DNA from: Candidatus Magasanikiibacteriota bacterium | GTDB lineage: Bacteria > Patescibacteriota > Patescibacteriia > Magasanikbacterales > GWA2-37-8 | Direction of reading: 5' to 3' | Assembly (NCBI GenBank): GCA_041666265.1 | Contig: JBAYHH010000001.1 | Location: 72,056 to 136,055 of the forward strand | Length of the DNA stretch: 64,000 nucleotides | Part shown: one piece after another, positions 5,568 through 46,084 of the stretch | How positions within the stretch are numbered: the first letter of the stretch is position 1 | Layout: each line of letters opens with the position of its first letter | Program-made: the position numbers and the translations under genes | Notes under the pieces: generated by a model | Databases searched by the model: none | The model's input: the letters and a program-made list of their open reading frames with translations, nothing else | What the model was told of the DNA's origin: nothing

Positions 5568-6992
5568 ATGAAATTATTGAAAATCTTATTATTAATATCA
5601 GCAACATTGGCGGTCTTGGGCGCGATCGGAGTTTATTTTTTTCAAAATGGCGTTTTGCAAGAAACTGTGATTAACGAAGCGCGAAAACAAATACCGGCGA
5701 TCGCGACCGCGCCCGATGATCTTATCCAAAATATTTTAGGCCTGAAGGCCACAAGGCATTATTTATTGTTATTTTTAAATAATACCGAAATGCGTCCCGG
5801 CGGCGGATTTATCGGGTCATACGGAGTAGTCAAAATGGAAGGCGGCCGACCGGAAATTTTGAAAGTCGAAGGCACCGAAATTTTGGATTACAGTCAAGAT
5901 GATTTTGATTTGCCGCCTCCACCCCAGCCGATCAGTGAATATTTAAAAGTGAAAAAATGGTATTTTCGCGATAGCAATTGGTCGCCGGATTTCGCGTCAT
6001 CGTCAGAGCGGGCGCTGGATTTTTATCGTCGAGAAAAAGGTTTGGCCGCCGATAGCATCGATGGAGTGATCGGCCTTACTCCGACCGTGATCGCGGAGAT
6101 TTTAAAAGTTACCGGACCGATAAAAATGGGCGGCCTTGAATTTAACAGCGATAATTTTGTGGAAAAGCTGGAGTATCAAGTGGAGTATGGTTACAAGGAG
6201 GATGATATCGCCCACAGTGATCGCAAGTTGATTTTGGGTGATTTGGCGCGCGCTCTCATGCAAAAAATTAAATACGACGCATTTTTAAACTGGAAAAAAT
6301 ATTTCGCTCTGGTCGAGAGATTGATCGCGGAAAAACAAATCATTTTTTATTCGACCGATGCCGGAGAGCAGAAATCATTGATTAATTCTGGTTGGGCCGG
6401 AGAAATGAAAAAATTCGCGGGTGATTATTTATTGTGGGCCGATGCCAACTTGGGCGCGCTGAAGACCGATTTGGCGGTCGAGAAATCGTTATCATATAGT
6501 TTGACCACCACTTCGATTGGCTATGAATCGGAAATTTCGATGACCTATCAACATTCCGGAAACATTGATTGGCGCACCAGTCGTTATCGAACTTACGCCC
6601 GCGCGTATGTGCCGGCGGGCAGTAAATTGGTGGCCGGGCAGGCAAATACCATTGGTTTAAAAACAGTCGAAAAATTAGCCGTTGATCAAGGGGTGGAAAA
6701 TGGTCGGCAGTGGTTTGGCGCTTTTGTGACCGTGGCACCGGGTCAAAGTTTGCGCTTGTCTTTTAAATATGTGCCCGCGCCCGCAATCGTAAAGATGATT
6801 GAAATGAATGATTATGGACTCTTGGTTCAAAAACAATTGGGCAGTGAAAATGTGAAATTAACACTGGGTATGGATTTTGGGAAAAAGGTGGTGTCGGCCA
6901 CGCCGCCTGAAGCTAAAGAAAAATTTGGCGACAACCGCTATGATTTACCAACTGATTTGACCACCGATCGTAAATTTGAAATCAAGTGGTGA
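5568..6992 (+). CDS. DUF4012-like membrane-anchored extracytoplasmic protein
   Basis: N-terminal TM/signal anchor; NNTEMRPGGGFIGSYG motif typical of DUF4012. Start chosen at ATG 5568, just after the GT2 stop. Confidence 0.55.
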   Translation: MKLLKILLLISATLAVLGAIGVYFFQNGVLQETVINEARKQIPAIATAPDDLIQNILGLKATRHYLLLFLNNTEMRPGGGFIGSYGVVKMEGGRPEILKVEGTEILDYSQDDFDLPPPPQPISEYLKVKKWYFRDSNWSPDFASSSERALDFYRREKGLAADSIDGVIGLTPTVIAEILKVTGPIKMGGLEFNSDNFVEKLEYQVEYGYKEDDIAHSDRKLILGDLARALMQKIKYDAFLNWKKYFALVERLIAEKQIIFYSTDAGEQKSLINSGWAGEMKKFAGDYLLWADANLGALKTDLAVEKSLSYSLTTTSIGYESEISMTYQHSGNIDWRTSRYRTYARAYVPAGSKLVAGQANTIGLKTVEKLAVDQGVENGRQWFGAFVTVAPGQSLRLSFKYVPAPAIVKMIEMNDYGLLVQKQLGSENVKLTLGMDFGKKVVSATPPEAKEKFGDNRYDLPTDLTTDRKFEIKW

Positions 6993-10799: not shown

Positions 10800-12170
10800 A
10801 TGGCTGATATCGAAAAAATAGTGTCGCTGTGTAAAAGAAGGGGATTTATCTTTCCGGGTTCGGAAATTTATGGCGGTCTCGCCAATACCTGGGATTACGG
10901 ACCGCTCGGGCATTTGCTCAAACAAAACATCAAGTCGCTTTGGTGGAAATTTTTCGTTCAACAGCGCGATGATATGGTGCCCTTGGACAGCGCCATCATC
11001 ATGAACCCGCGCGTTTGGGAGGCTTCCGGGCATTTACAAAATTTTTCAGACGCGCTCGTGGAGTGTAAGGAGTGCCATCATCGGTTTCGCGTCGATCATT
11101 TGCTCGCGGCCAAAGGCATCGAGCCCAAATATGACAAAGAAAAAGTCTTGGTGCCGTCCGAGGTCACTTGTCCGGATTGCGACGGTAGATTGACTGAGCC
11201 AAAGAATTTTAACCTGATGTTTAAGACTTTTATCGGTACCAATGAAGATAGCGCCACTACCGCGTATTTGCGTCCCGAGACCGCCGGTGGGATGTTTGTG
11301 AATTTTAAGAATGTTTTAGGCGTCACGCGCAAGCGCTTGCCGTTTGGTATTGCTCAAATCGGCAAATGCTTTCGCAATGAAATCACTCCCGGTAATTTTA
11401 TATTTCGCACCCGTGAGTTTGAGATCGGCGAGTTTGAATATTTTATCGACCCCAAAGATTGGGAAAAAGTATTTGAGATGTGGCTCGGTGAAATCCGCCG
11501 TTGGTGGAAAGACGCCATGCAGATCAATATGGACAATTTAGTGTGGCACGAGCTCTCGGAGGGCGACCGCGCTTTTTATAGCAAGCGCACGGTGGATATC
11601 GAATACAAATATCCGTTTGGGATTGGTGAGTTGCATGGCATCGCTTATCGCACTGATTATGATTTGTCGCGCCACGAAAAAGTGAGCGGACAGGATTTGC
11701 ACTACACCGATCCCGTGACTAACGAAAAATTTATTCCGCATGTGATCGAGCCCACTTTTGGCATCGATCGTATGTTACTCGTGGCGCTTCTCGAGGCTTA
11801 TCACGAAGAAGATGTGCCGACTGCCGATGAGGGTGAATCAGAAAAGCGTATTGTCATGAAATTTCCCAAACACCTCGCTCCGATCCAGGTGGCGGTGTTG
11901 CCGTTATCCAAAAAAGAACAGTTGTCATCGGTGGCCCGTGATTTGGCCAATGACCTGCGCGCGCTTTACTCGGTGGACTATGATGAGACCCAGAGTATCG
12001 GCAAGCGCTATCGTCGGCAGGATGAAATCGGCACGCCCTATTGCGTGACGGTGGATTTCGACAGTCTCGAAGATAAAAAAGTCACGGTGCGCGATCGCGA
12101 TACTATGAAGCAAGAGCGGGTGGCGATGGCGGAATTATTAAAATATTTACAAGCTAAATTTAATTCATAA
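10800..12170 (+). CDS. glyQS: glycyl-tRNA synthetase, class II (alpha2 dimeric type)
   Basis: N-terminal RRGFIFPGSEIYGGLANTWDYGPLG and class II motifs; 456 aa. Confidence 0.9.
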   Translation: MADIEKIVSLCKRRGFIFPGSEIYGGLANTWDYGPLGHLLKQNIKSLWWKFFVQQRDDMVPLDSAIIMNPRVWEASGHLQNFSDALVECKECHHRFRVDHLLAAKGIEPKYDKEKVLVPSEVTCPDCDGRLTEPKNFNLMFKTFIGTNEDSATTAYLRPETAGGMFVNFKNVLGVTRKRLPFGIAQIGKCFRNEITPGNFIFRTREFEIGEFEYFIDPKDWEKVFEMWLGEIRRWWKDAMQINMDNLVWHELSEGDRAFYSKRTVDIEYKYPFGIGELHGIAYRTDYDLSRHEKVSGQDLHYTDPVTNEKFIPHVIEPTFGIDRMLLVALLEAYHEEDVPTADEGESEKRIVMKFPKHLAPIQVAVLPLSKKEQLSSVARDLANDLRALYSVDYDETQSIGKRYRRQDEIGTPYCVTVDFDSLEDKKVTVRDRDTMKQERVAMAELLKYLQAKFNS

Positions 12171-12180
12171 TATTTATCAT

Positions 12181-12429
12181 ATGGGTTTTGATGCCAATGG
12201 CGAATTTACCATGCCTTCGCGCGAAGAATTAACAGGAAGATTGTCGTTGTTAAAAATGGACCTGGATAAAATTCTTGGGGCGGAAAATTATGCTGTTGAA
12301 TACGACAATTTGGCTAAACGAGTTGTGGTCAACGAACGCAATGTCGAGCTTGATCCCAATACACGCGCTCGGATTGAGCGCATTGAGTCGGAGTTGCAAG
12401 ATTGCAAAGATCTGTTTTTGGGTAAGTAA
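12181..12429 (+). CDS. hypothetical small protein (82 aa)
   Basis: ORF packed between glyQS and the M16 peptidase; host-like codon usage; no recognisable motif. Confidence 0.4.
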   Translation: MGFDANGEFTMPSREELTGRLSLLKMDLDKILGAENYAVEYDNLAKRVVVNERNVELDPNTRARIERIESELQDCKDLFLGK

Positions 12430-19475: not shown

Positions 19476-21251
19476 ATGGCGAAATTAAAAGACACTCCAA
19501 AATTTGATCGACCACGAGAAAAATATATTGAAAAAGGTCCTGACGCGCTAACCGATAGCGAACTTTTGGCGATTTTACTTGGCAATGGCACAAAAGGCAT
19601 GAATGTAAAAGTCGTTGCGCAAAAAATTATAAAAAAATTTGGAACCAATCTGATAAATGTGTCGGTTGACGAACTGAAAGAAATTAAAGGAATTGGGCAA
19701 GCAAAGGCATTACAAATTGTTTCGGTGATTGCGTTGGCGAAACGACTGTTTGATAAGCAAAATGCGCCGGACAATTTAGTTTTATCTGCGCAAGACGCGG
19801 TAAAATTAGTGATAGAATTGAAAGATAAAAAACAAGAACACCTCGTTTGTTTGTATCTTAATGCTCGCAATGCCTTAATTAAAAAGGAAATTGTTTCCAT
19901 TGGAACGCTGGACAAAAGCATTGTTCATCCGCGTGATATTTTTGCATTGGGTTTAGAGTTGCATGCGGCCGGTGTTATTCTCATACACAATCATCCGTCC
20001 GGGGATGTTAGACCAAGCGAGCAGGATAAGCAAGTTGTCAAAAGAATTATTGAAGCTGGGCAGTTAATGGGTGTTAACGTCGTAGATTTTCTCATAGTGG
20101 CCAAGAATGCCACGCATAGCGTGTTGGGTGAAACCAGTAACACCAAGTTAGCCGACATCGAATATGTGGCCGAAGGATTGCAAGCGTCGTTGTTTAGTTT
20201 GCTAACGGAAACAAAGCAGGTTTATTTTTATGGAAACAATTTGATTGATACTTCGCCGACCAGCAGTAAAAGTTTTCGTTTCATTGATTTGTTTGCCGGC
20301 ATTGGCGGTATACGAATCGCTTTTGAACGCAATGGCGGTCAATGTGTTTTCACATCTGAATTTGATGAACCGTGCCAAGTAATGTATGAGGCAAATTTTG
20401 GAGATAAACCACATGGAGATATCACGAAAATTTCTGCCGATGAAATACCGGATCACGATATTTTAACTGGCGGTTTTCCCTGCCAAGCATTTAGTATAAT
20501 TGGAAAGAAACGTGGATTTGCGGATACTCGCGGCACTTTATTTTTTGATGTTGAAAGAATTTTAAAGGTGAAACAACCAAAAGCTTTTCTTCTGGAGAAT
20601 GTAAAACAGTTAACATCTCATGACGGGGGGCGCACATTTAAGATAATTATAGAATCTTTAAAAAATCTAGGGTATTATGTCCATTACAAAGTGCTTAACG
20701 GTCTTGACTTTGGTGTGCCACAAAGACGACAAAGGATAATGATAGTTGGTTTCAAAGAGAATTATCCTTTTGAATTTCCGAAGAGCGGATCGGATAACAA
20801 AACATTAGCCGATATTTTGGAACCGGACGGCAAAATTGATAAAAAACATTATCTAAGCGACAGTTTTCGGAAAAAATTGCAAGAAAGATTAAAAGAACAG
20901 GGCAAAAAGCCTGCACCCCAACCATCTGTTTGGCATGAGAATAAAGGTGGCAATATCGGGATGCACCCTTACTCGTGCGCGTTGAGAGCCAATGGATCTT
21001 ATAATTATTTGACAGTGAACGGAGAGCGACGACTTACACCAAGAGAAATGTTGCGTTTGCAAGGATTCCCAGATACTTTTAGAGTTGTTGTTCCGGATAC
21101 ACAAGTGAGAAAACAAGCGGGCAATAGTGTGGTTATTCCAAAAATTCAAGCAGTCGCGCGCGCTATGGTGGAAGCAATGAAACAGCCAGCAAGGGACGAA
21201 TCACATAAAGTTGGCTCATTAATTAATAAATCTGAAATAATTTATGCCTAA
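19476..21251 (+). CDS. fusion protein: N-terminal RadC (HhH + JAB/MPN, UPF0758) domain joined to a C-terminal DNA (cytosine-5)-methyltransferase
   Basis: aa 1-225: DSELLAILLGNG...GIGQAKALQI (HhH) and HNHPSGDVRPSEQD (JAMM). aa ~260-591: m5C-MTase motif I DLFAGIGG, motif IV GFPCQAFS, motif VI LLENVKQL, motif X QAGNSV. Confidence 0.8.
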   Translation: MAKLKDTPKFDRPREKYIEKGPDALTDSELLAILLGNGTKGMNVKVVAQKIIKKFGTNLINVSVDELKEIKGIGQAKALQIVSVIALAKRLFDKQNAPDNLVLSAQDAVKLVIELKDKKQEHLVCLYLNARNALIKKEIVSIGTLDKSIVHPRDIFALGLELHAAGVILIHNHPSGDVRPSEQDKQVVKRIIEAGQLMGVNVVDFLIVAKNATHSVLGETSNTKLADIEYVAEGLQASLFSLLTETKQVYFYGNNLIDTSPTSSKSFRFIDLFAGIGGIRIAFERNGGQCVFTSEFDEPCQVMYEANFGDKPHGDITKISADEIPDHDILTGGFPCQAFSIIGKKRGFADTRGTLFFDVERILKVKQPKAFLLENVKQLTSHDGGRTFKIIIESLKNLGYYVHYKVLNGLDFGVPQRRQRIMIVGFKENYPFEFPKSGSDNKTLADILEPDGKIDKKHYLSDSFRKKLQERLKEQGKKPAPQPSVWHENKGGNIGMHPYSCALRANGSYNYLTVNGERRLTPREMLRLQGFPDTFRVVVPDTQVRKQAGNSVVIPKIQAVARAMVEAMKQPARDESHKVGSLINKSEIIYA

Positions 21252-22302
21252 CATTAGAATGTCAAAAGAGGCGATAGATACAATTATCCGCAAGTCGCGC
21301 GTCCATTTGTATAAGCCAATCCAAATTGCCGAATTACTATATCATCACAGAATAGATAAAAAACGATGGGACCTGCTTGATCTGGAATCGTATCGCAATG
21401 TATCAAAAAGATGGCGCGACGAAGTGTCCAATCGTTTGGTTGGCAGAATTTGCACATCAAGTCAAAAATTTCAAGATAATATTTTTGATACAAACGCAAT
21501 GCCGCCCAAGTTGCTGCGCGATTTAGGTCTTTTCAATAAGCGACGCAATGGGTTCGTAGAAGCGTATATTTATAATGCCTTAAATGAAAGACTGTCATCG
21601 GTGCATGATGTAAACACTTACATTCACAAATCAACAGCGGTGAGTTTTGATTTAAAAAAGATAGTCGCTTTGTTTGAGTTGAGCCCGGGATTAAAAAGAA
21701 GTGTGGACAAAATTTATGAAATTCTTGTATATGCGTTATTTTCTACTATCGTAAGAGCTCTACGCGCCCAAATAACACTTGAAATTTTGAACGAAGACAA
21801 GCAGCTGCTTAAAGATTTTGAGTCCTTTATTAAAATGGTGATGGGTATTGATGCCAAGAATACAAAGATAATATTGCCTGCAGCTTTATATAGAGCCGGT
21901 GTCGCCAATGCCGCAGATAGAGGGTTGGATATGTGGGCAAATTTCGGTCTGGCTATTCAAGTTAAACATTTAACACTTACGCCGGAATTAATGGAGGATG
22001 TGGCGAATGAAATAGCGGCGGATAGAATGGTTGTGGTTTGTATAGATTCCGAGAAAGAGGCCATAAATAATTTATTATCGCAAGTTGGTTGGGGAGAAAA
22101 AATCCATGGGATTATCACCATTGATGATCTGGATCAATGGTATAAAATTTGTCTTAGCGATAAGTATAGAAGTAATTTAGGTAAAAATTTATTGAAGGAT
22201 GTTGAAAGAGAGTTTGGTCTGGAATTCCCATCAAATTCTGAATTGATTCCATTTATAAACGAACGCGGATACGCGAAATTTAAGACGGATTTTAAATGGT
22301 AA
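21244..22302 (+). CDS. putative type II restriction endonuclease (unknown specificity), translationally coupled to the MTase
   Basis: 8-nt overlap with the MTase gene; AT-rich (~38% GC, estimated by eye); 352 aa with no similarity to housekeeping families. Assignment is by gene context. Confidence 0.45.
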   Translation: MPNIRMSKEAIDTIIRKSRVHLYKPIQIAELLYHHRIDKKRWDLLDLESYRNVSKRWRDEVSNRLVGRICTSSQKFQDNIFDTNAMPPKLLRDLGLFNKRRNGFVEAYIYNALNERLSSVHDVNTYIHKSTAVSFDLKKIVALFELSPGLKRSVDKIYEILVYALFSTIVRALRAQITLEILNEDKQLLKDFESFIKMVMGIDAKNTKIILPAALYRAGVANAADRGLDMWANFGLAIQVKHLTLTPELMEDVANEIAADRMVVVCIDSEKEAINNLLSQVGWGEKIHGIITIDDLDQWYKICLSDKYRSNLGKNLLKDVEREFGLEFPSNSELIPFINERGYAKFKTDFKW

Positions 22303-22446
22303 AGTATAAATTGTCAAACACATTGATGATGAATGGTTGTTTAAATAAAAAACAACCCCTTGCGGGGATGTTTCCAACCTTGTTTCCTAGACTGGTGACC
22401 CAGCCACGCCACCATCCGGTGACAGTTCGGAGAACAGGTTTTTGTA

Positions 22447-23301
22447 ATGCTATTATATACTGCAAACAAGCACTTGTCAATAGAAAATTTTGATATTTTA
22501 TCTAATATTAGCCAAAAGGGGCTGTGGATAAGTAATAATATGTCCGAATATTACACCCCTCAACGCACTAAAAATTTATACGACCCAAAATCACTGGACT
22601 CTTTTAAACTCTCGCGTTCCAAGATAGATTTGTTTTTAGAGTGTCCGCGTTGTTTTTATTTAGACCGTCGTTTAGGTGTGGGCCGACCGCCCGGATTTCC
22701 ATTTGCACTTAATTCGGCTGTGGATAAGTTGCTCAAGAAGGAATTTGATATCCACCGTGCTAAAAAACAGGCGCATCCATTGATAACCCACTACGGCGTT
22801 GACGCAGTGCCAATCGCGCACAAAGATTTGGATATCTGGCGTGAAAATTTTAAAGGCATACAATATTTACACGAGCCAACCAATTTGGTTATCACCGGCG
22901 CTATTGATGATCTCTGGCAAAATTCAAAAGGGGAGTATATTGTGGTGGATTATAAGTCCACATCCAAGGACGAAGATATTACCGAGCTTAATAAAGATTG
23001 GCAAGGCGGCTATAAGCGCCAAATGGAGGTGTACCAGTGGCTATTACGCCGGAATGGATATAAAGTGTCTAAGACTGGGTATTTTGTTTATTGCAATGGC
23101 CAAACCGACCGCAAGGCGTTTGATGCTAAGTTGGAATTTGATATCACTTTAATTGCCTACAAGGGCGATGATTCTTGGGTGGATAAAGCTGTTATTGGCG
23201 CGCATAAGTGTTTGAATGGCAATAAAATTCCAAAATCCGGCGCGGATTGCGATTATTGTGCGTATGTACAGGCGGTAGAAAGTAAAACATTGTTGACTTA
23301 G
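22447..23301 (+). CDS. Cas4/RecB-like PD-(D/E)xK nuclease with predicted Fe-S cluster cysteines (start uncertain; alternative ATG at 22540)
   Basis: N-terminal CPRCFY; AIDDLW...YIVVDYKST (D...D/ExK); QMEVYQW (QxxxY); C-terminal C-x14-CDYC cysteine cluster. Confidence 0.65.
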   Translation: MLLYTANKHLSIENFDILSNISQKGLWISNNMSEYYTPQRTKNLYDPKSLDSFKLSRSKIDLFLECPRCFYLDRRLGVGRPPGFPFALNSAVDKLLKKEFDIHRAKKQAHPLITHYGVDAVPIAHKDLDIWRENFKGIQYLHEPTNLVITGAIDDLWQNSKGEYIVVDYKSTSKDEDITELNKDWQGGYKRQMEVYQWLLRRNGYKVSKTGYFVYCNGQTDRKAFDAKLEFDITLIAYKGDDSWVDKAVIGAHKCLNGNKIPKSGADCDYCAYVQAVESKTLLT

Positions 23302-25234: not shown

Positions 25235-25250
25235 CAATGGGAATAAAAAA

Positions 25251-25300
25251 GGCGAACCGCAGGGTTCGCCGTTGTGTTGGCGGCCGATTAGGCCGCTTTT
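25251..25300 (+). terminator. two tandem GC hairpins after tRNA-Gln, the second followed by TTTT
   Basis: GGCGAACC-gcag-GGTTCGCC, then GCGGCC-gatta-GGCCGC-TTTT. Confidence 0.55.
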
Positions 25301-25479
25301 CGGTGTTCGAATATTTCTTCGTAGACAACCGGCCGACAAGCGGCCATTTCGTCCGCGAAAAAATTTCGGGCTCCGGGCGTCCACTCGTCGCTGGTTTGGA
25401 GCCAGCACTCGCGGACGAAATCATCGCTCGCTTCGCGCGAGCGGATGAGCCCAAGCAGTTGATAAAATGTCACCTTCAT
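25288..25479 (-). CDS. hypothetical small protein (63 aa) with a canonical GGAGG Shine-Dalgarno sequence
   Basis: ATG at 25479 preceded on the minus strand by GGAGGAAAAAAA. Most neighbouring genes lack SD. No recognisable motif (J-domain-like start but no HPD). Confidence 0.3.
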   Translation of the reverse strand: MKVTFYQLLGLIRSREASDDFVRECWLQTSDEWTPGARNFFADEMAACRPVVYEEIFEHRKAA

Positions 25480-25549
25480 TTTTTTCCTCCCCAGGAAAAT
25501 TCGCGTGCCCCGTGCGCGCGACTCTTGAATATAGCACAAAATACCAAAT

Positions 25550-25578
25550 TTGTCAAGATACCCGCTTTTTGCTAAAAT
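25550..25578 (+). promoter_or_regulatory. strong sigma70-like promoter TTGTCA-17-TAAAAT, giving a leaderless FkbM-MTase transcript
   Basis: -35 at 25550-25555, -10 at 25573-25578, ATG at 25586. Confidence 0.55.
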
Positions 25579-25585
25579 ATACCCC

Positions 25586-26287
25586 ATGGAAACCACAAAA
25601 ATAAAATTTGGCAAATCAGAGTTTACCTTGCATTTGCGTGACGAGGCGGACATTTCCGTGATGCGCGAGATTTTTAAGTTGCGCGAATATCGCATCGCCG
25701 AAGAAGCGATCAAATCCGCCGCCGACCCAATATTTGACATTGGCGCTCACGCTGGATTTTTTAGTATATATTGTCGGGCGCTCAACCACCAAGTCGAGAT
25801 TGTTGCGCTCGAGCCCGAGCCTGATAATGTGAAAATATTTAAACAACACCTCAAAGATAATAAAATTGCGGGTGTGAAAGTTATTTCCGGCGCGTTGGCC
25901 GGTCAAACAGGGGATAGATGGTTGCGAATTTCTATTGACAGTCATAATCATGCCTTGACGGACAGCCCAACGGTCAGTGAATCGGCATCCATCAAAGTTC
26001 ACGCGTTTTCTTTGCGTGATTTTTGTAAAAATGAGAAAGTCAAAAAAATATCACTTTTAAAAATGGATATTGAAGGCGGGGAATACGAAGTGCTCGAAAA
26101 TCTCACCCCGAGCGATTATCGTCTGTTCAAATACGCAATTTTGGAGTATCATGATAGTCAGAGACGAAATTTCAGGGTGTTGGAAAAATTATTGCGGGAA
26201 AACGGTTTTGGGGTGCAGATATTTCCATCCAAATTTGATAAAAACATGGGATTTATTTTTGCTTCTAACAAAAGAGGGGTTGTATGA
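25586..26287 (+). CDS. FkbM-family SAM-dependent methyltransferase (Methyltransf_21)
   Basis: FDIGAHAGFFSIY glycine-rich SAM-binding motif typical of FkbM. Start set at 25586, downstream of the promoter; the ORF track has 25550. Confidence 0.7.
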   Translation: METTKIKFGKSEFTLHLRDEADISVMREIFKLREYRIAEEAIKSAADPIFDIGAHAGFFSIYCRALNHQVEIVALEPEPDNVKIFKQHLKDNKIAGVKVISGALAGQTGDRWLRISIDSHNHALTDSPTVSESASIKVHAFSLRDFCKNEKVKKISLLKMDIEGGEYEVLENLTPSDYRLFKYAILEYHDSQRRNFRVLEKLLRENGFGVQIFPSKFDKNMGFIFASNKRGVV

Positions 26288-27606
26288 TCGAAAAAGCTTG
26301 GATCGTCACGGTCGACATGGGCTATGGGCATCAGCGCGCCGCCTATCCTTTGCGCGGTTTGTCTCCGACCGGTAAAGTCATCGTAGCCAATAATTACGCC
26401 GGTATTCCCAATAGCGATCGGCGCATTTGGGAATCTTCGCGCAAATTTTATGAATTTGTTTCTCGATTTACCAATATTCCCTTGATCGGGCGCCGACTTT
26501 TTAAATTTTATGATCAGATCCAAAAAATTCCCGAGTTTTATCCGCGCCGAGACATGTCCAATCCGAGCTTACAGGTGCGTCAGATGTATCGGCTGATTGA
26601 TACTGGTTGGGGTAAAAATTTAATCGAGTATCTAAACACTGAAAATGTGCCATTGATTACAACTTTTTTTACCGTGGCATTCATGGCGGAGGAACACAAA
26701 TTTAAAAATGATATTTATTGCGCGCTTTGCGACGCGGATATTTCTCGCACCTGGGTCGGTCTTCATCCCCATAAAAGCCGGATCAAGTATCTGGCTCCCT
26801 GTCGGCGCGTAGTGGAGAGGTTGAAATTATACGGTGTTAAGCCGGAAAATATTTTTTTAACCGGCTTTCCCTTGCCCGAAGAAAATTTAGGCCGAGAATT
26901 AGACGCTCTTAAAAATGATTTGGCCGAACGCATCGTTAATCTCGATCCCGAGCATCGCTATCGCTATAAATACGGCGAGACCGTGAAGCATTTTCTCGAA
27001 GGAATAAAAATTAATGCTCATCACCACCATCCATTGACCATCACCTTTGCGGTGGGTGGAGCCGGAGCGCAAAAAAATTTAGCATCCGATATTTTACGGA
27101 GTTTGCGCAAAAAATTACTTAAAGGAGAAGTTAATTTAAATTTGGTTGCCGGTGTGCGCAATGATGTTTATTTGTATTTCAAAAAAGAGATTGCGCGACT
27201 GAAACTCAACAAAGTTTTTGGCGAGAATCTAAATATTTTGTTTTCACCGGACAAAGAAGATTATTTTACCAAGCTTAATGCTTGCCTGCGTTCGACTGAT
27301 ATTTTTTGGACCAAACCGAGCGAATTGGTGTTTTATAGCGCCCTGGGCCTGCCGATCGTGATGGCGCCGTCAGTGGGGTCCCAGGAGGACTTCAATCGGC
27401 TGTGGCTAAAGACCATAGGGGCCGGAATATCGCAAAATAACCCCCGCTACACGCACGAATGGCTGTTTGATTGGATTCGGTCCGGTTGGCTGGCCGAAGC
27501 CGCTATGGCGGGCTTTTTGGATGGCCGGCAGTGGGGTGTGCACAACATCAAGCAGGTGGTATTTCACGGGGTCAAAGAACCGGCCAAAAACCATCAATTA
27601 TTGTAA
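26284..27606 (+). CDS. GT-B fold glycosyltransferase (GT28/MGDG-synthase/MurG-like)
   Basis: N-terminal DMGYGHQRAAYPL matches the G-x-G-H-x-x-A motif of MGDG synthase/UgtP/MurG N-domains; C-terminal LGLPIVMAPSVGSQEDFN. ATGA overlap with the FkbM gene. Confidence 0.55.
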   Translation: MIEKAWIVTVDMGYGHQRAAYPLRGLSPTGKVIVANNYAGIPNSDRRIWESSRKFYEFVSRFTNIPLIGRRLFKFYDQIQKIPEFYPRRDMSNPSLQVRQMYRLIDTGWGKNLIEYLNTENVPLITTFFTVAFMAEEHKFKNDIYCALCDADISRTWVGLHPHKSRIKYLAPCRRVVERLKLYGVKPENIFLTGFPLPEENLGRELDALKNDLAERIVNLDPEHRYRYKYGETVKHFLEGIKINAHHHHPLTITFAVGGAGAQKNLASDILRSLRKKLLKGEVNLNLVAGVRNDVYLYFKKEIARLKLNKVFGENLNILFSPDKEDYFTKLNACLRSTDIFWTKPSELVFYSALGLPIVMAPSVGSQEDFNRLWLKTIGAGISQNNPRYTHEWLFDWIRSGWLAEAAMAGFLDGRQWGVHNIKQVVFHGVKEPAKNHQLL

Positions 27607-27620
27607 GTTTAAAAATAAAA

Positions 27621-27650
27621 AACGGTGGCGATAAGCCATCGTTTTTTTTG
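27621..27650 (+). terminator. rho-independent terminator of the FkbM-GT operon
   Basis: AACGGTGGC-gataa-GCCATCGTT-TTTTTTTT. Confidence 0.75.
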
Positions 27651-27709
27651 TTCACTACTTTTGAAAAAATACGAACGGATTTTACCGAAAATATGGGGTG
27701 AACCCACAT

Positions 27710-27769
27710 ATTTGCTTCGCTCGCTCGGAAATGAAAATTAATTTTCATTTCCGAGCGAGCGAAGCAAAT
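27710..27769. repeat. 60-nt perfect palindrome (ATTTGCTTCGCTCGCTCGGAAATGAAAATT|AATTTTCATTTCCGAGCGAGCGAAGCAAAT)
   Basis: reverse complement checked base by base for the central 56 nt; extends to 60 nt; lies in a convergent intergenic region. Confidence 0.9.
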
Positions 27770-27774
27770 TAACT

Positions 27775-27806
27775 GGGCGGGCGGAAGGAAGGGGTGTGAG
27801 GAGGGA
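27775..27806 (+). repeat. G-rich tract with four G3+ runs (GGGCGGGCGGAAGGAAGGGGTGTGAGGAGGG), potential G-quadruplex
   Basis: seen directly. Confidence 0.5.
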
Positions 27807-27860: not shown

Positions 27861-27896
27861 TAAAAAACAAAAGACAACCGTGATTGTCTTTTGTTG
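27861..27896 (-). terminator. rho-independent terminator of the DUF4325/GHKL operon (minus strand)
   Basis: minus-strand read ACAAAAGACAA-tcacgg-TTGTCTTTTGT-TTTTTA immediately after the stop codon. Confidence 0.7.
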
Positions 27897-28259
27897 TTAG
27901 CACGAACATTTCGCTAACGCATTAATATCTGTTTTTTCAATCTGAATATTTATTTCACTATTTCTCGGCACTGCGCGATTGGCTGCCACTATTCGGAACA
28001 TCTCTTGTACATTTTCGATAGTATTTACGAAAGTTATGTATTTTTTGTTCAACCATTTTCTTTGTAAATCTTCTTTCATTAAAAGCAGTGCGTGAGCAGC
28101 CGAACGAGAAACAAATTCAACCTCGGAAAAGTCTAAATCAACCGATTGAGCATCGGCCTTATTTACCGCTTCGACCAAAACCGGCATCAAATCGCGAGAT
28201 CCCACGATCGGGGCCAATGTCTTGGCCACATTGATTGTTATTTTGTCTTGTTTAGCCAT
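27897..28259 (-). CDS. DUF4325 (STAS-like) domain protein
   Basis: 120 aa; ITINVAKTL...SVDLDFSEVEFVSRSAAHALL...ITFVNTIENVQEMF follows the DUF4325/STAS-like pattern (V-x-x-DF-x-x-V-x-x-x-S-S-F-x-x-E). Confidence 0.55.
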   Translation of the reverse strand: MAKQDKITINVAKTLAPIVGSRDLMPVLVEAVNKADAQSVDLDFSEVEFVSRSAAHALLLMKEDLQRKWLNKKYITFVNTIENVQEMFRIVAANRAVPRNSEINIQIEKTDINALAKCSC

Positions 28260-28287
28260 ATAATTTTAGTATACCAGAAAAAGTATA

Positions 28288-29142
28288 TTATTCCAAATAA
28301 GGAGAAATGTCAACTGGACCGAGCGGTTTTGGTATGCGATACGCGACAACAACGCCTTGCCAATAAAATCCGGGTAAGTCCACAATTTTTTGATCTTTAC
28401 CACTTGCCACTAAGGCAGACGAACCAGATAAAAGCACAAATTCGCCACCCAAACATTCACAAACTACTTTTTTTGATGTGCGCACGCCATAACCGCGCTC
28501 CACGCTTGGTTTGGTGGAGTGACCTTTCAAAACTTCCACTATTGAATCCGCGTCGGATAATTTTAATCCTTTCTCCTCTTCATAAGTTTTAGCCAATCCG
28601 CGCCCACAGTCAACGATGCAAATATCCAAATAATTTTTCTTGGGATAAAATTGTCCAAAGATAAAGCCTTTATCTTGTTTGCTGTGATCAAAAATGTTGG
28701 TAACGAGTTCTGTAATCGGATAATGCACCGCATTTTGCGCGCCGGCTACTGAACCCAAAACGCTGTACACCATCATAGAAAAAAGCGACTCCAATCTTTC
28801 TCGCTCCGGCCCTTTTTCTTTTTTCAAAATACTAATCGGAATATAACTTTTGTGCGCTTGGATTTGTTGTTGGAAAACCGAAACGCTATCAACTCCATAT
28901 GGAAAATTTATTGCGTTTAAATATGAGTGGTTGACATTGTTTTCGTCCTTACAATGGCGGCTGTTATAACAGTTTATATGTGCGCTCAACGGTAAGATTA
29001 AAAGAGGATAAAACCAATCTACATTAGAGATATCAAAATCACGTTGGTCAGAAAAATTAGTATCCTTAAAAACTTTATATAAGCACACCAGTTGAGCGAC
29101 TAACGAGCTATCGTTTGGTTTGGGAACAATGTATTTTTCCAT
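28288..29142 (-). CDS. GHKL-superfamily ATPase (HATPase_c, RsbW/anti-sigma-kinase-like) with a ~130-aa N-terminal domain of unknown function
   Basis: N-box ITELVTNIFDHS, G1 box IVDCGRGL, G2 box KGHSTK...GYGVR; AT-rich coding sequence. Confidence 0.65.
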   Translation of the reverse strand: MEKYIVPKPNDSSLVAQLVCLYKVFKDTNFSDQRDFDISNVDWFYPLLILPLSAHINCYNSRHCKDENNVNHSYLNAINFPYGVDSVSVFQQQIQAHKSYIPISILKKEKGPERERLESLFSMMVYSVLGSVAGAQNAVHYPITELVTNIFDHSKQDKGFIFGQFYPKKNYLDICIVDCGRGLAKTYEEEKGLKLSDADSIVEVLKGHSTKPSVERGYGVRTSKKVVCECLGGEFVLLSGSSALVASGKDQKIVDLPGFYWQGVVVAYRIPKPLGPVDISPYLE

Positions 29143-43302: not shown

Positions 43303-43357
43303 AAAAAAACGGAGTAGAATACAATGAAAAAAATATTCTACTCCGTTTTTTTATTTT
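43303..43357. terminator. bidirectional terminator shared by rplU(+) and recR(-)
   Basis: AACGGAGTAGAATA-caatgaaaaaaa-TATTCTACTCCGTT flanked by A-run and T-run. Confidence 0.75.
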
Positions 43358-43953
43358 CGGTTTTTGAGCGCGGAAGCGAGGGTGATCTCGTCGGCGTATT
43401 GGAGATCGGATCCCATCGGCAGTCCGCGGGCGAGGCGAGTGACAATAATTTTTGGATTGATTTTTTTGATCGTTTTTTCCAGATACATCGCGGTGGTTTC
43501 ACCGGGTAAATCCGGATTAAGAGCCAAGATGATTTCTTGAATAGTTGTTTTGGCGCTCGGATGCGCGCGTTTGAGCAGCTCGCGAATTTTTGTTTTTAAA
43601 AAATTTTCTTCATCGGCGATCTCAATCACTCCGCGGAGCACATGATAAACTCCGCGATGAGCGCCGGATTTTTCTATCGCCGGCACATCTTGGGGATCAG
43701 CGACTACACAAACGATAGTGTGGTCGCGCTTCGAGTCTTTGCAAGTATGACAAGGCGATGTATCCGCGAAATTCCAACAAATTTCACAACTTTTGGTATT
43801 TTTGAGCAATTCATCCAAGGCGGATTTTAATTCATTGACTTCACCCTTGCCGCCTTTGAGCAAACTAAAGACATACCGTTCAGCAGTGCGTTCGCCAACC
43901 GATGGTAGTTTTTTTAGGGCGTGGATGAGGTTGGTGATTGTCCGGGAGTACAT
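43351..43953 (-). CDS. recR: recombination protein RecR
   Basis: HhH LPSVGERTAER, C4 zinc finger CEIC...C..C, Toprim domain. Confidence 0.9.
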   Translation of the reverse strand: MYSRTITNLIHALKKLPSVGERTAERYVFSLLKGGKGEVNELKSALDELLKNTKSCEICWNFADTSPCHTCKDSKRDHTIVCVVADPQDVPAIEKSGAHRGVYHVLRGVIEIADEENFLKTKIRELLKRAHPSAKTTIQEIILALNPDLPGETTAMYLEKTIKKINPKIIVTRLARGLPMGSDLQYADEITLASALKNRK

Positions 43954-44043
43954 AGTTATCGATTTTAAATAAGATAATTCTTCGACGCAGTGAATTTTTC
44001 GAAAAATTCAAGCGTCTCAGAACTATCTTATTTAAAATCTCAA

Positions 44044-44358
44044 TTATTTCATCCCCGGCAGTCCCAATCCTTCCAACCCGCCCATTTCCTGCATCTTGCT
44101 CGCCATCACGCGTTGAATTTTTTTGATTGCGTCCGCGTGCGCGTCTTTAATGGCTGTTTGAAGTTTTTCTTTTTTGGTCGGATTGAGCAAATCATCAGCG
44201 ATCGATAATCCGGTAATCGACATGTTGCCATCCATGGTTAAGACCACGCTGTCGCCGGCCGCACGCACAGTTACCGACTCTTTAGACATTACACCCTGGA
44301 TTTTTTTTCCTTGTTCGCGTAAATCTTTAAACTGTTTTAGTTTGTTGAGTAATGACAT
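44044..44358 (-). CDS. ybaB: nucleoid-associated protein YbaB/EbfC
   Basis: 104 aa; MSLLNKLKQFKDLREQGKKIQ... matches the YbaB family. Confidence 0.85.
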   Translation of the reverse strand: MSLLNKLKQFKDLREQGKKIQGVMSKESVTVRAAGDSVVLTMDGNMSITGLSIADDLLNPTKKEKLQTAIKDAHADAIKKIQRVMASKMQEMGGLEGLGLPGMK

Positions 44359-45881: not shown

Positions 45882-46084
45882 ATGACTACATCATATCTAA
45901 TTACTCGTAACCCCGCAAGCGGGGAGGTGTGAGCAATTTGGGGAGAGAGTGTGAGGAATTATAATGGGTAGGCCAAGCTGATATTTAATTGAGCGGGTTA
46001 TGGTCCCGCAGGACCATCCCCGAGCGCTCGCGCGCGAGGAAAGTGAATGAGTATGTCAATTTTGGCTAAAAGAAGTCGAAGCTC

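Follow-up and report, generated by a model that had tools for sequence, protein, structure and literature searches.

In the 64-kb stretch of DNA that was analysed (the window), two convergent genes, at 26284–27606 on the + strand and at 27897–28259 on the − strand, are separated by a gap of 290 bp. The left neighbour encodes a 440-residue DUF6938 protein and the right neighbour a protein of 120 residues. Both genes possess an intrinsic terminator of their own, one at 27612–27652 (+), found from the sequence and inverted-repeat scans, and one at 27863–27898 (−), found by terminator and inverted-repeat scans and also delimited as 27895–27866. The canonical terminators that the initial annotation had assigned to both flanking operons are therefore real. 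Within the gap, positions 27710–27769 form a perfect palindrome of 60 nt without spacer, consisting of ATTTGCTTCGCTCGCTCGGAAATGAAAATT followed directly by AATTTTCATTTCCGAGCGAGCGAAGCAAAT; the exact self-complementarity that had been described there was confirmed. The palindrome stops at these positions because the outer neighbours, 27709 and 27770, are T and T, which cannot pair. The second-longest perfect palindrome of the window measures 22 nt, and the longest found in each of 200 composition-preserving block shuffles of the window was 12–24 nt. Folded as single-stranded DNA, the palindrome has an energy of −36.9 kcal/mol (z = −11.6). No second occurrence of its half-site was found in the window. 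An intrinsic terminator was considered and rejected: the palindrome is flanked by CACAT and TAACTGG, there is no U tract, and the terminator scan makes no call at this place. As had been proposed, the palindrome is not needed for termination, since it lacks a U tract and each neighbouring gene is served by its own terminator.

Synteny with relatives stops at the palindrome on both sides. The whole element is absent from relatives of the left gene (88, 84 and 73% identity) and of the right gene pair (79–75%): none was found at the left-gene loci of L009, L007 and L008, nor at the right-pair loci of L129–L134 (50 kb). The palindrome, for which a comparison of syntenic regions had been suggested, is lacking in the relatives and so is not conserved. 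The intergenic flanks had no significant BLAST match to any locus. Directly to the right of the palindrome, a G-rich tract at 27775–27806 (GGGCGGGCGGAAGGAAGGGGTGTGAGGAGGG) is likewise not conserved in relatives, and none of the loci contains a match to it. No integrase, transposase, recombinase or telomere resolvase is encoded within 10 kb of the palindrome, nor is a RAYT (Y1 HUH transposase). An integration or recombination junction of an AT-rich segment had been put forward; the end of synteny on both sides speaks for this suggestion, and the lack of an integrase, transposase or resolvase within 10 kb speaks against it. The notion that the AT-rich segment is foreign had to be dropped, as the segment is actually a conserved two-gene cassette of Patescibacteria.

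The cassette, at 27897–29142, comprises the gene of the 120-residue protein and that of a 284-residue GHKL-like protein, which form a tightly linked pair. The larger protein has weak similarity to HATPase_c and to the N-terminal part of DrmA. The pair is found with 55–81% identity across Patescibacteria, in a different neighbourhood in each relative (L129–L134). A tRNA-Gln island was also considered and rejected, as the tRNA end is without a direct repeat and the pair occurs in varied contexts without an integrase. In the 79%-identical relative (L129/L130), the 120-residue protein gene is followed by a long hairpin, at about 6260–6375, in which tandem CCTGCCTGCCG repeats face GTAGGCAGG repeats. 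Beyond it, at about 6660–6680, is a 20-nt perfect palindrome, CCTGCCTGCCGGCAGGCAGG. These two features constitute a different palindromic repeat system in a position equivalent to that of the palindrome in the window.

Two other regions of the window were recorded. A further long quasi-palindrome, which measures about 79 nt (43961–44039), with 28-nt arms that are 89% complementary and an internal 20-nt perfect palindrome (43991–44010), lies between ybaB (44044–44358, −) and recR (43351–43953, −); its sequence is unrelated to the hairpin family presented below. A restriction-modification island (19476–23301) encodes a RadC-JAB/C5-methylase fusion, a HaeII-type endonuclease and a PD-(D/E)XK nuclease, and contains a DUF3800-IX RNA (22372–22440, −, 53.4 bits). 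Comparison with the syntenic relative L009 shows the island as an insertion between rotamase and ftsE.

The palindrome was examined in three assembly records. The window is contained in contig k141_1549520 (175 kb, a MEGAHIT-style name) of ENA record ERZ27249449, which spans the whole palindrome with unique flanks and whose proteins carry the NCBI annotation Candidatus Magasanikbacteria. The JGI contig Ga0376277_0290312 (L004), assembled separately and with its own sample record, covers the entire intergenic region; over 400 nt that include the palindrome and unique flanks, its identity is 100%. Two Logan contigs of SRR6484324 (L002 and L005) stop at 27739 and 27740, each with the 30-mer half-site as its end. 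The Logan assemblies are built with k = 31. In a graph with k = 31, a unitig that enters a palindrome must halt k−1 = 30 nt in, and contigs that break at the palindrome centre are therefore the expected signature of a true palindrome. The canonical copies of the family described below have a palindromic core of only 24 nt, for which no branching is expected at k = 31. As both Logan contigs end in the same 30-mer and a canonical copy would not branch, the right arm CCGAGCGAGCGAA, joined to the right flank, is present in the reads.

The 60-base palindrome is thus real, with a small residual doubt. The doubt relates to an artefact of assembly or library, by which a canonical quasi-palindromic copy would have been made perfect through in vitro template switching of the polymerase or through a graph error. 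Genuineness was judged from short-read de Bruijn assemblies, the three records perhaps represent one physical sample, and the half-length of 30 nt equals k−1 of the Logan assemblies. These points are outweighed by the MEGAHIT and JGI contigs, which cross the palindrome from one unique flank to the other, and by the common 30-mer at the ends of the Logan contigs, where a 24-nt core would have caused no branching, so that an artefact is considered very improbable. Because k = 31 Logan assemblies break exactly at perfect palindromes, such loci are fragmented in large public assembly sets.

The half-site was searched in other genomes, as had been recommended. A 20-mer that covers its loop and P2 portions, CGCTCGCTCGGAAATGAAAA, is matched exactly in at least 119 metagenome contigs, once in each, mostly from Patescibacteria, and the context of the matches is conserved. 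Among the matches listed, one architecture is common to all but three of 99 distinct contexts of the 20-mer. The canonical element usually begins with a mini-hairpin, AGGGTATTAAACCCT, followed by GTG and the 5′ strand of an outer stem, P1 (e.g. TTATC, TTGAC, TTGCC). Two linker bases and the invariant CGCTCGCTCGG lead to the inner stem, P2, formed by GAAATGAAAA and TTTTCATTTC, which encloses an apical loop that varies from a few nucleotides to a few tens. The element is completed by the 3′ loop strand CnCTCGCTCGCT, the 3′ strand of P1 (GATAA, GTCAA, GGCAA) and a T-AA tail. Between the two stems is an internal loop of 12 × 12 nt, with CGCTCGCTCGG on the 5′ side and CnCTCGCTCGCT on the 3′ side. 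Both loop strands are conserved and they are not complementary; as direct rather than inverted repeats, they are unable to pair.

Stem P1 is supported by covariation. In 94 distinct copies, 100 double-change cells were counted against 20.8 in shuffles, and none of 500 shuffles reached 100. Pairing holds in 93.8% of the cells, against 44–57% when the partners are slid by 1–3 columns. The base of P1 is predominantly a G·T pair (58 G·T and 19 A-T of 92 cells), an excess which suggests that one particular strand folds. A covariance model, R1, consists of 94 copies, with the copy of the window left out. Canonical copies score 60–89 bits with this model, and its use in searches brought about 25 further copies that had not been selected via the 20-mer. 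In copies found without the 20-mer, P2 displays compensatory changes (AAATGGAAA/TTTCCATTT, AAAAGAAAA/TTTTCTTTT and CCCGCC/GGCGGG), and the loop strands are still conserved.

The copies are intergenic, occur in both orientations and can be numerous: L074 has four within 14.5 kb, and L053 has three within 12.5 kb. A position at most 150 nt downstream of a long open reading frame on the same strand is found for 44 copies, 20 of which are 11–18 nt after the stop codon; 29 copies are downstream of a gene on the opposite strand. Two of the four copies in L074 are sense and two are antisense to co-directional genes, and such antisense copies argue against a purely sense-RNA role. Inverted pairs, with a few hundred nucleotides between the copies, are seen in L015 and L123, among others. 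The genes that flank canonical copies are core genes, such as those of L2, SecY, MraY and ParB. By exact-protein look-ups, the host contigs belong to the Patescibacteria group, Moranbacteria and Parcubacteria, with one metagenome-assembled genome (MAG) labelled Elusimicrobiota. The latter corresponds to L040 (contig Ga0265292_1000094, 188 kb), which harbours two copies and encodes a PilC-like protein annotated as Elusimicrobiota at NCBI; either the family reaches beyond Patescibacteria, or the MAG is mislabelled.

Some canonical copies are close to stable-RNA genes: they precede tmRNA by about 40 nt, tRNA 5′ ends by 15–27 nt, 16S rRNA by about 350 nt and, in antisense, 23S rRNA by about 50 nt. 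These copies upstream of tmRNA, tRNA and rRNA genes are found in L016 (2159–2231), L028, L034, L032 (453–526) and L044 (179–260), and at least some copies would therefore belong to stable-RNA precursor transcripts. In one sub-lineage (L074 at 12192–12254, L018, L091, L124 and L039), two or three additional GC hairpins with CAAG loops precede the element and form a composite of about 150 nt with it. The composite of the L074 type has a sub-threshold, cloverleaf-like Rfam match to Entero_5_CRE (27.5 bits). Tandem copies of the element with a common ATAA junction are present in L093 (9849–10008) and L025 (about 11910–12110), and one tandem unit of L093 has CCCGCC/GGCGGG in place of P2.

Other readings of the canonical element were rejected. 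Its 3′ end resembles a promoter (TTGATA/GATAAT), but it is often followed, after 0–20 nt, by a start codon or a tRNA 5′ end, and separate consensus promoters are found downstream of some copies (L102, L093). A small open reading frame through the hairpin is precluded by apical-loop lengths that vary out of frame. At the gathering threshold, no Rfam 15 family was detected on the window or on 20 loci with canonical copies. Permissive Rfam scans gave sub-threshold miRNA-like hairpin matches on the copy of the window, a sub-threshold match in the upstream flank of L074 and none on the L053 copy. No description of the element was found in the literature searched. Viral contigs scanned with two half-site patterns gave no hit, nor did blastn against a phage collection. 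A scan of GTDB genomes with another 20-mer, GCTTCGCTCGCTCGGAAATG, which includes copy-specific P1 bases, returned a single match, beside a tRNA in an Acidobacteria MAG; it scores 10.3 bits with R1 (E = 0.36) and was dismissed as chance low complexity.

The palindrome of the window is matched by R1 over its full length on both strands (27706–27772), with 53.6 bits on the + strand (E = 1.7e-14) and 51.4 bits on the − strand. On the + strand, the family alignment places the 5′ strand of P1, ATTTGC, at 27710–27715 (by covariance-model alignment). The 5′ internal-loop strand TTCGCTCGCTCG (27716–27727) comes next, with the TT linker and the family-invariant CGCTCGCTCG(G). The P2 hairpin core (27728–27751, GAAATGAAAATT followed by AATTTTCATTTC) is itself a 24-nt perfect palindrome and is the same, apex included, as in L039, L046 and L060. 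After a 3′ loop strand at 27752–27763, the 3′ strand of P1, GCAAAT, is at 27764–27769 (by family and model alignment). The flanks also resemble those of the family: a mini-hairpin, ATGGGGTGAACCCACAT, at 27693–27709 (+), is the counterpart of the AGGGTATTAAACCCTGTG module that precedes most canonical copies, a module which is not universal in the family, and the end reads AAT-TAA where the family has AAT-AA. Over 27710–27751 and 27764–27769, there is no mismatch to the consensus features (P1, P2, CGCTCGCTCGG and the GAAA...TTTC base of P2).

The sole deviating segment is the 3′ loop strand at 27752–27763. It has the canonical length of 12 nt, but reads CGAGCGAGCGAA in place of (T)CTCGCTCGCT(T) and is the exact reverse complement of 27716–27727, so that the unpaired CnCTCGCTCGCT of the family is absent. 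Counted on alignment columns, 12 of the 12 loop positions pair in the window copy; the 94 canonical copies have 0–5 pairs, and no register gives them more than 6. Its longest perfect arm, in the window, measures 30 bp, compared with 4–13 bp in 119 copies. The RNA folding energy over the model span is −47.1 kcal/mol, compared with a family median of −18.6 kcal/mol. Among 128 loci, the 20-mer is present on both strands only in the three that derive from this genome. By its sequence, the window palindrome is an aberrant, derived member of the Patescibacteria family of CGCTCGCTCGG-loop hairpins.

The initial annotation had supposed that the palindrome belongs to a dispersed hairpin repeat family. 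The guess was correct in spirit, as the family exists in other Patescibacteria genomes, but the proposed relatives were wrong and the window holds a single copy, the next-best R1 match reaching 18.8 bits. The GC-rich modules at 25422–25440 and 46021–46040, which had been taken as relatives, score only 13.2 bits (E = 0.2) and 9.3 bits (E = 3.5). The former hairpin lies in a GC-rich region (25237–25575) downstream of tRNA-Gln(ttg), which overlaps a 112-residue open reading frame without Pfam match and contains nested inverted repeats (25277–25303/25333–25359 and 25339–25358/25409–25428).

It is proposed that the window copy arose from a canonical element by template switching and is now a dead or altered relic, a reading given a probability of about 0.6. 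The canonical element is a typical quasi-palindrome, in which two perfect stems bracket a 12 × 12 mismatch block. In a single mutational event, the 12-nt 3′ loop strand would have been replaced by a sequence exactly complementary to the 5′ loop strand, and P1, the loop and P2 would thereby have been zipped into a perfect stem of 30 bp. The event would most likely have been an intrastrand or cross-fork template switch in replication, the nascent strand pairing via P2, copying the opposite arm and returning via P1. That template switching perfects quasi-palindromes and creates hairpins is established experimentally and by comparative genomics (PMC8794818, PMC7202029, PMC5941160). The hallmark of such an event is seen in the window, where 27752–27763 is the reverse complement of 27716–27727 and is bounded by the pre-existing P2 and P1. 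A single copy suffices, which agrees with the lack of any other copy in the window and at the loci of relatives. Several points call for caution. No unconverted orthologous copy was found, the closest relatives being devoid of the element altogether, and the ancestral state was therefore deduced from paralogues in other genomes. As the scores of the + and − strands are nearly equal, the flanks are weak evidence for a single + oriented ancestor. A conversion of 12 nt also exceeds most quasi-palindrome events observed experimentally, which counts against a template switch.

The main rival to the template switch, which ranks as most likely, is a head-to-head fusion. Both convergent genes would once have had their own canonical element, and a deletion between the identical 24-nt P2 cores, by slippage or recombination, would have joined the two 5′ halves. 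The product would be P1-a-core-rc(a)-rc(P1), and the palindrome would be a recombination junction. Indeed, it lies exactly where a + strand block meets a − strand block, with synteny to relatives ending on both sides. The family favours sites just downstream of a gene on the same strand (44 versus 29), inverted pairs at a distance of a few hundred nucleotides do occur, as in L015 and L123, and the P2 core, being a 24-nt perfect palindrome, can serve as a direct repeat. The fusion requires, on the other hand, two copies with an identical 8-nt P1 and linker (ATTTGCTT), when there is no other copy in the 64 kb and the relatives of both flanking genes are without the element. The right flank, read on the − strand, has no upstream mini-hairpin and carries an A at a position at which T is conserved in the family at 90% or more, and the + orientation scores 2 bits higher. 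A fusion is thus regarded as unlikely. An inversion was rejected as the origin, as the reciprocal 3′–3′ junction that it predicts is absent from the window.

Whatever its origin, the perfect palindrome itself might have been selected, either as a cruciform or dimer-binding DNA site, or because it would provide the same RNA hairpin to both convergent transcripts. Either strand reads as a canonical 5′ half and R1 matches both. The AT-rich centre and the energy of the DNA hairpin favour extrusion, and as DNA the window copy could extrude a cruciform. The palindrome is also unchanged in three assemblies. It is, conversely, unique among about 120 copies of the family, and its place outside both terminators probably leaves it poorly transcribed. 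Moreover, no recombinase or resolvase is encoded within 10 kb, the half-site is found nowhere else in the window, and relatives do not conserve it. Selection of the perfect form is accordingly held to be rather improbable.

The reading retained for the window copy, a template-switch product, has consequences for its function. Placed outside both terminators and deprived of the conserved unpaired loop, the copy is thus probably a relic, most likely functionally dead or altered, and not a terminator, operator or resolution site. A role of the perfect palindrome in protein binding, as a resolution site or as a small RNA seems unlikely, because perfect pairing destroys the unpaired loop, which is the most conserved feature of the family.

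That feature directs attention to the canonical elements. Their conserved single-stranded (CGCT)n loops are probably a recognition surface for a putative protein acting on folded RNA or single-stranded DNA. The tiny genomes of these bacteria (CPR) contain hardly any spare non-coding DNA. With up to one copy per 3–4 kb and conservation at the nucleotide level across lineages in such genomes, the element likely does something. It is tentatively proposed, at slightly less than even odds, that the element conserved across the Patescibacteria superphylum is a new class of functional RNA or of recognition module in single-stranded DNA, its covarying stems exposing two invariant, unpaired (CGCU/CGCT)n strands. 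Such a module could act as operon punctuation, as a processing site, or as the substrate of a putative hairpin-specific enzyme. If this is true, the window copy is a natural loss-of-loop mutant.

Taken alone, the palindrome is a mutational curiosity, and its kind is already known. As a clean natural case of a quasi-palindrome turned into a perfect palindrome of 60 bp that persists in a wild genome, it bears on the birth of hairpins by template switching and on the tolerance of reduced genomes to palindromes. The family is the more valuable lead: conserved, structured, multi-copy and not in Rfam 15, it appears to be new.

Several known systems share features with the palindrome or with the family. 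The palindrome has in common with quasi-palindrome template-switch mutations (the Ripley model; E. coli reporters, PMC7202029; hairpin creation, PMC8794818) that the cluster of changes is the exact reverse complement of an arm between pre-existing stems. It differs from those reported in that 12 contiguous nucleotides are converted, in a natural genome, and in that the ancestral allele is deduced from paralogues. Like a bidirectional intrinsic terminator, the palindrome is a hairpin in a convergent intergenic region; unlike one, it has no flanking U/A tract, its apex is AT-rich, and both genes have canonical terminators. Protelomerase (telRL-type) targets are also perfect palindromes of about 50–60 bp. 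Such a site or hairpin telomere was rejected, as no telomere-resolvase Pfam family was found on genes within 10 kb and the palindrome is internal to a 175-kb contig. A further difference is that the half-site comes from a hairpin family in which canonical members are imperfect palindromes.

The canonical element shares with integron attC sites two stems with an unpaired central spacer, a variable terminal structure and a frequent location directly after a stop codon. An attC identity was rejected: the R''/R' consensus (RYYYAAC...GTTRRRY) is not found, P1 being GTTRNC...GNYAAT with the opposite polarity, the flanking genes are core genes, and there is no integrase within 10 kb. The closest parallel is with the REP/BIME, BOX, RUP and Correia repeats, which are also multi-copy, intergenic, often just past gene 3′ ends and present in both orientations, and which are also imperfect palindromes with covarying stems, conserved unpaired nucleotides and modular accessory hairpins. 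By this analogy, the family resembles a REP/BOX-type intergenic hairpin repeat located at gene 3′ ends. The copy number is REP-like in L074 (up to four copies in 14.5 kb), compared with the single copy in the 64 kb of this genome that were analysed, and the 5′ GTAG tetranucleotide that heads REP sequences is absent from the family alignment. In contrast to REP/BOX-type repeats, the same core sequence is found across many Patescibacteria lineages rather than in one genus, and it is a symmetric internal loop, composed of direct (CGCT)n repeats, that is conserved.
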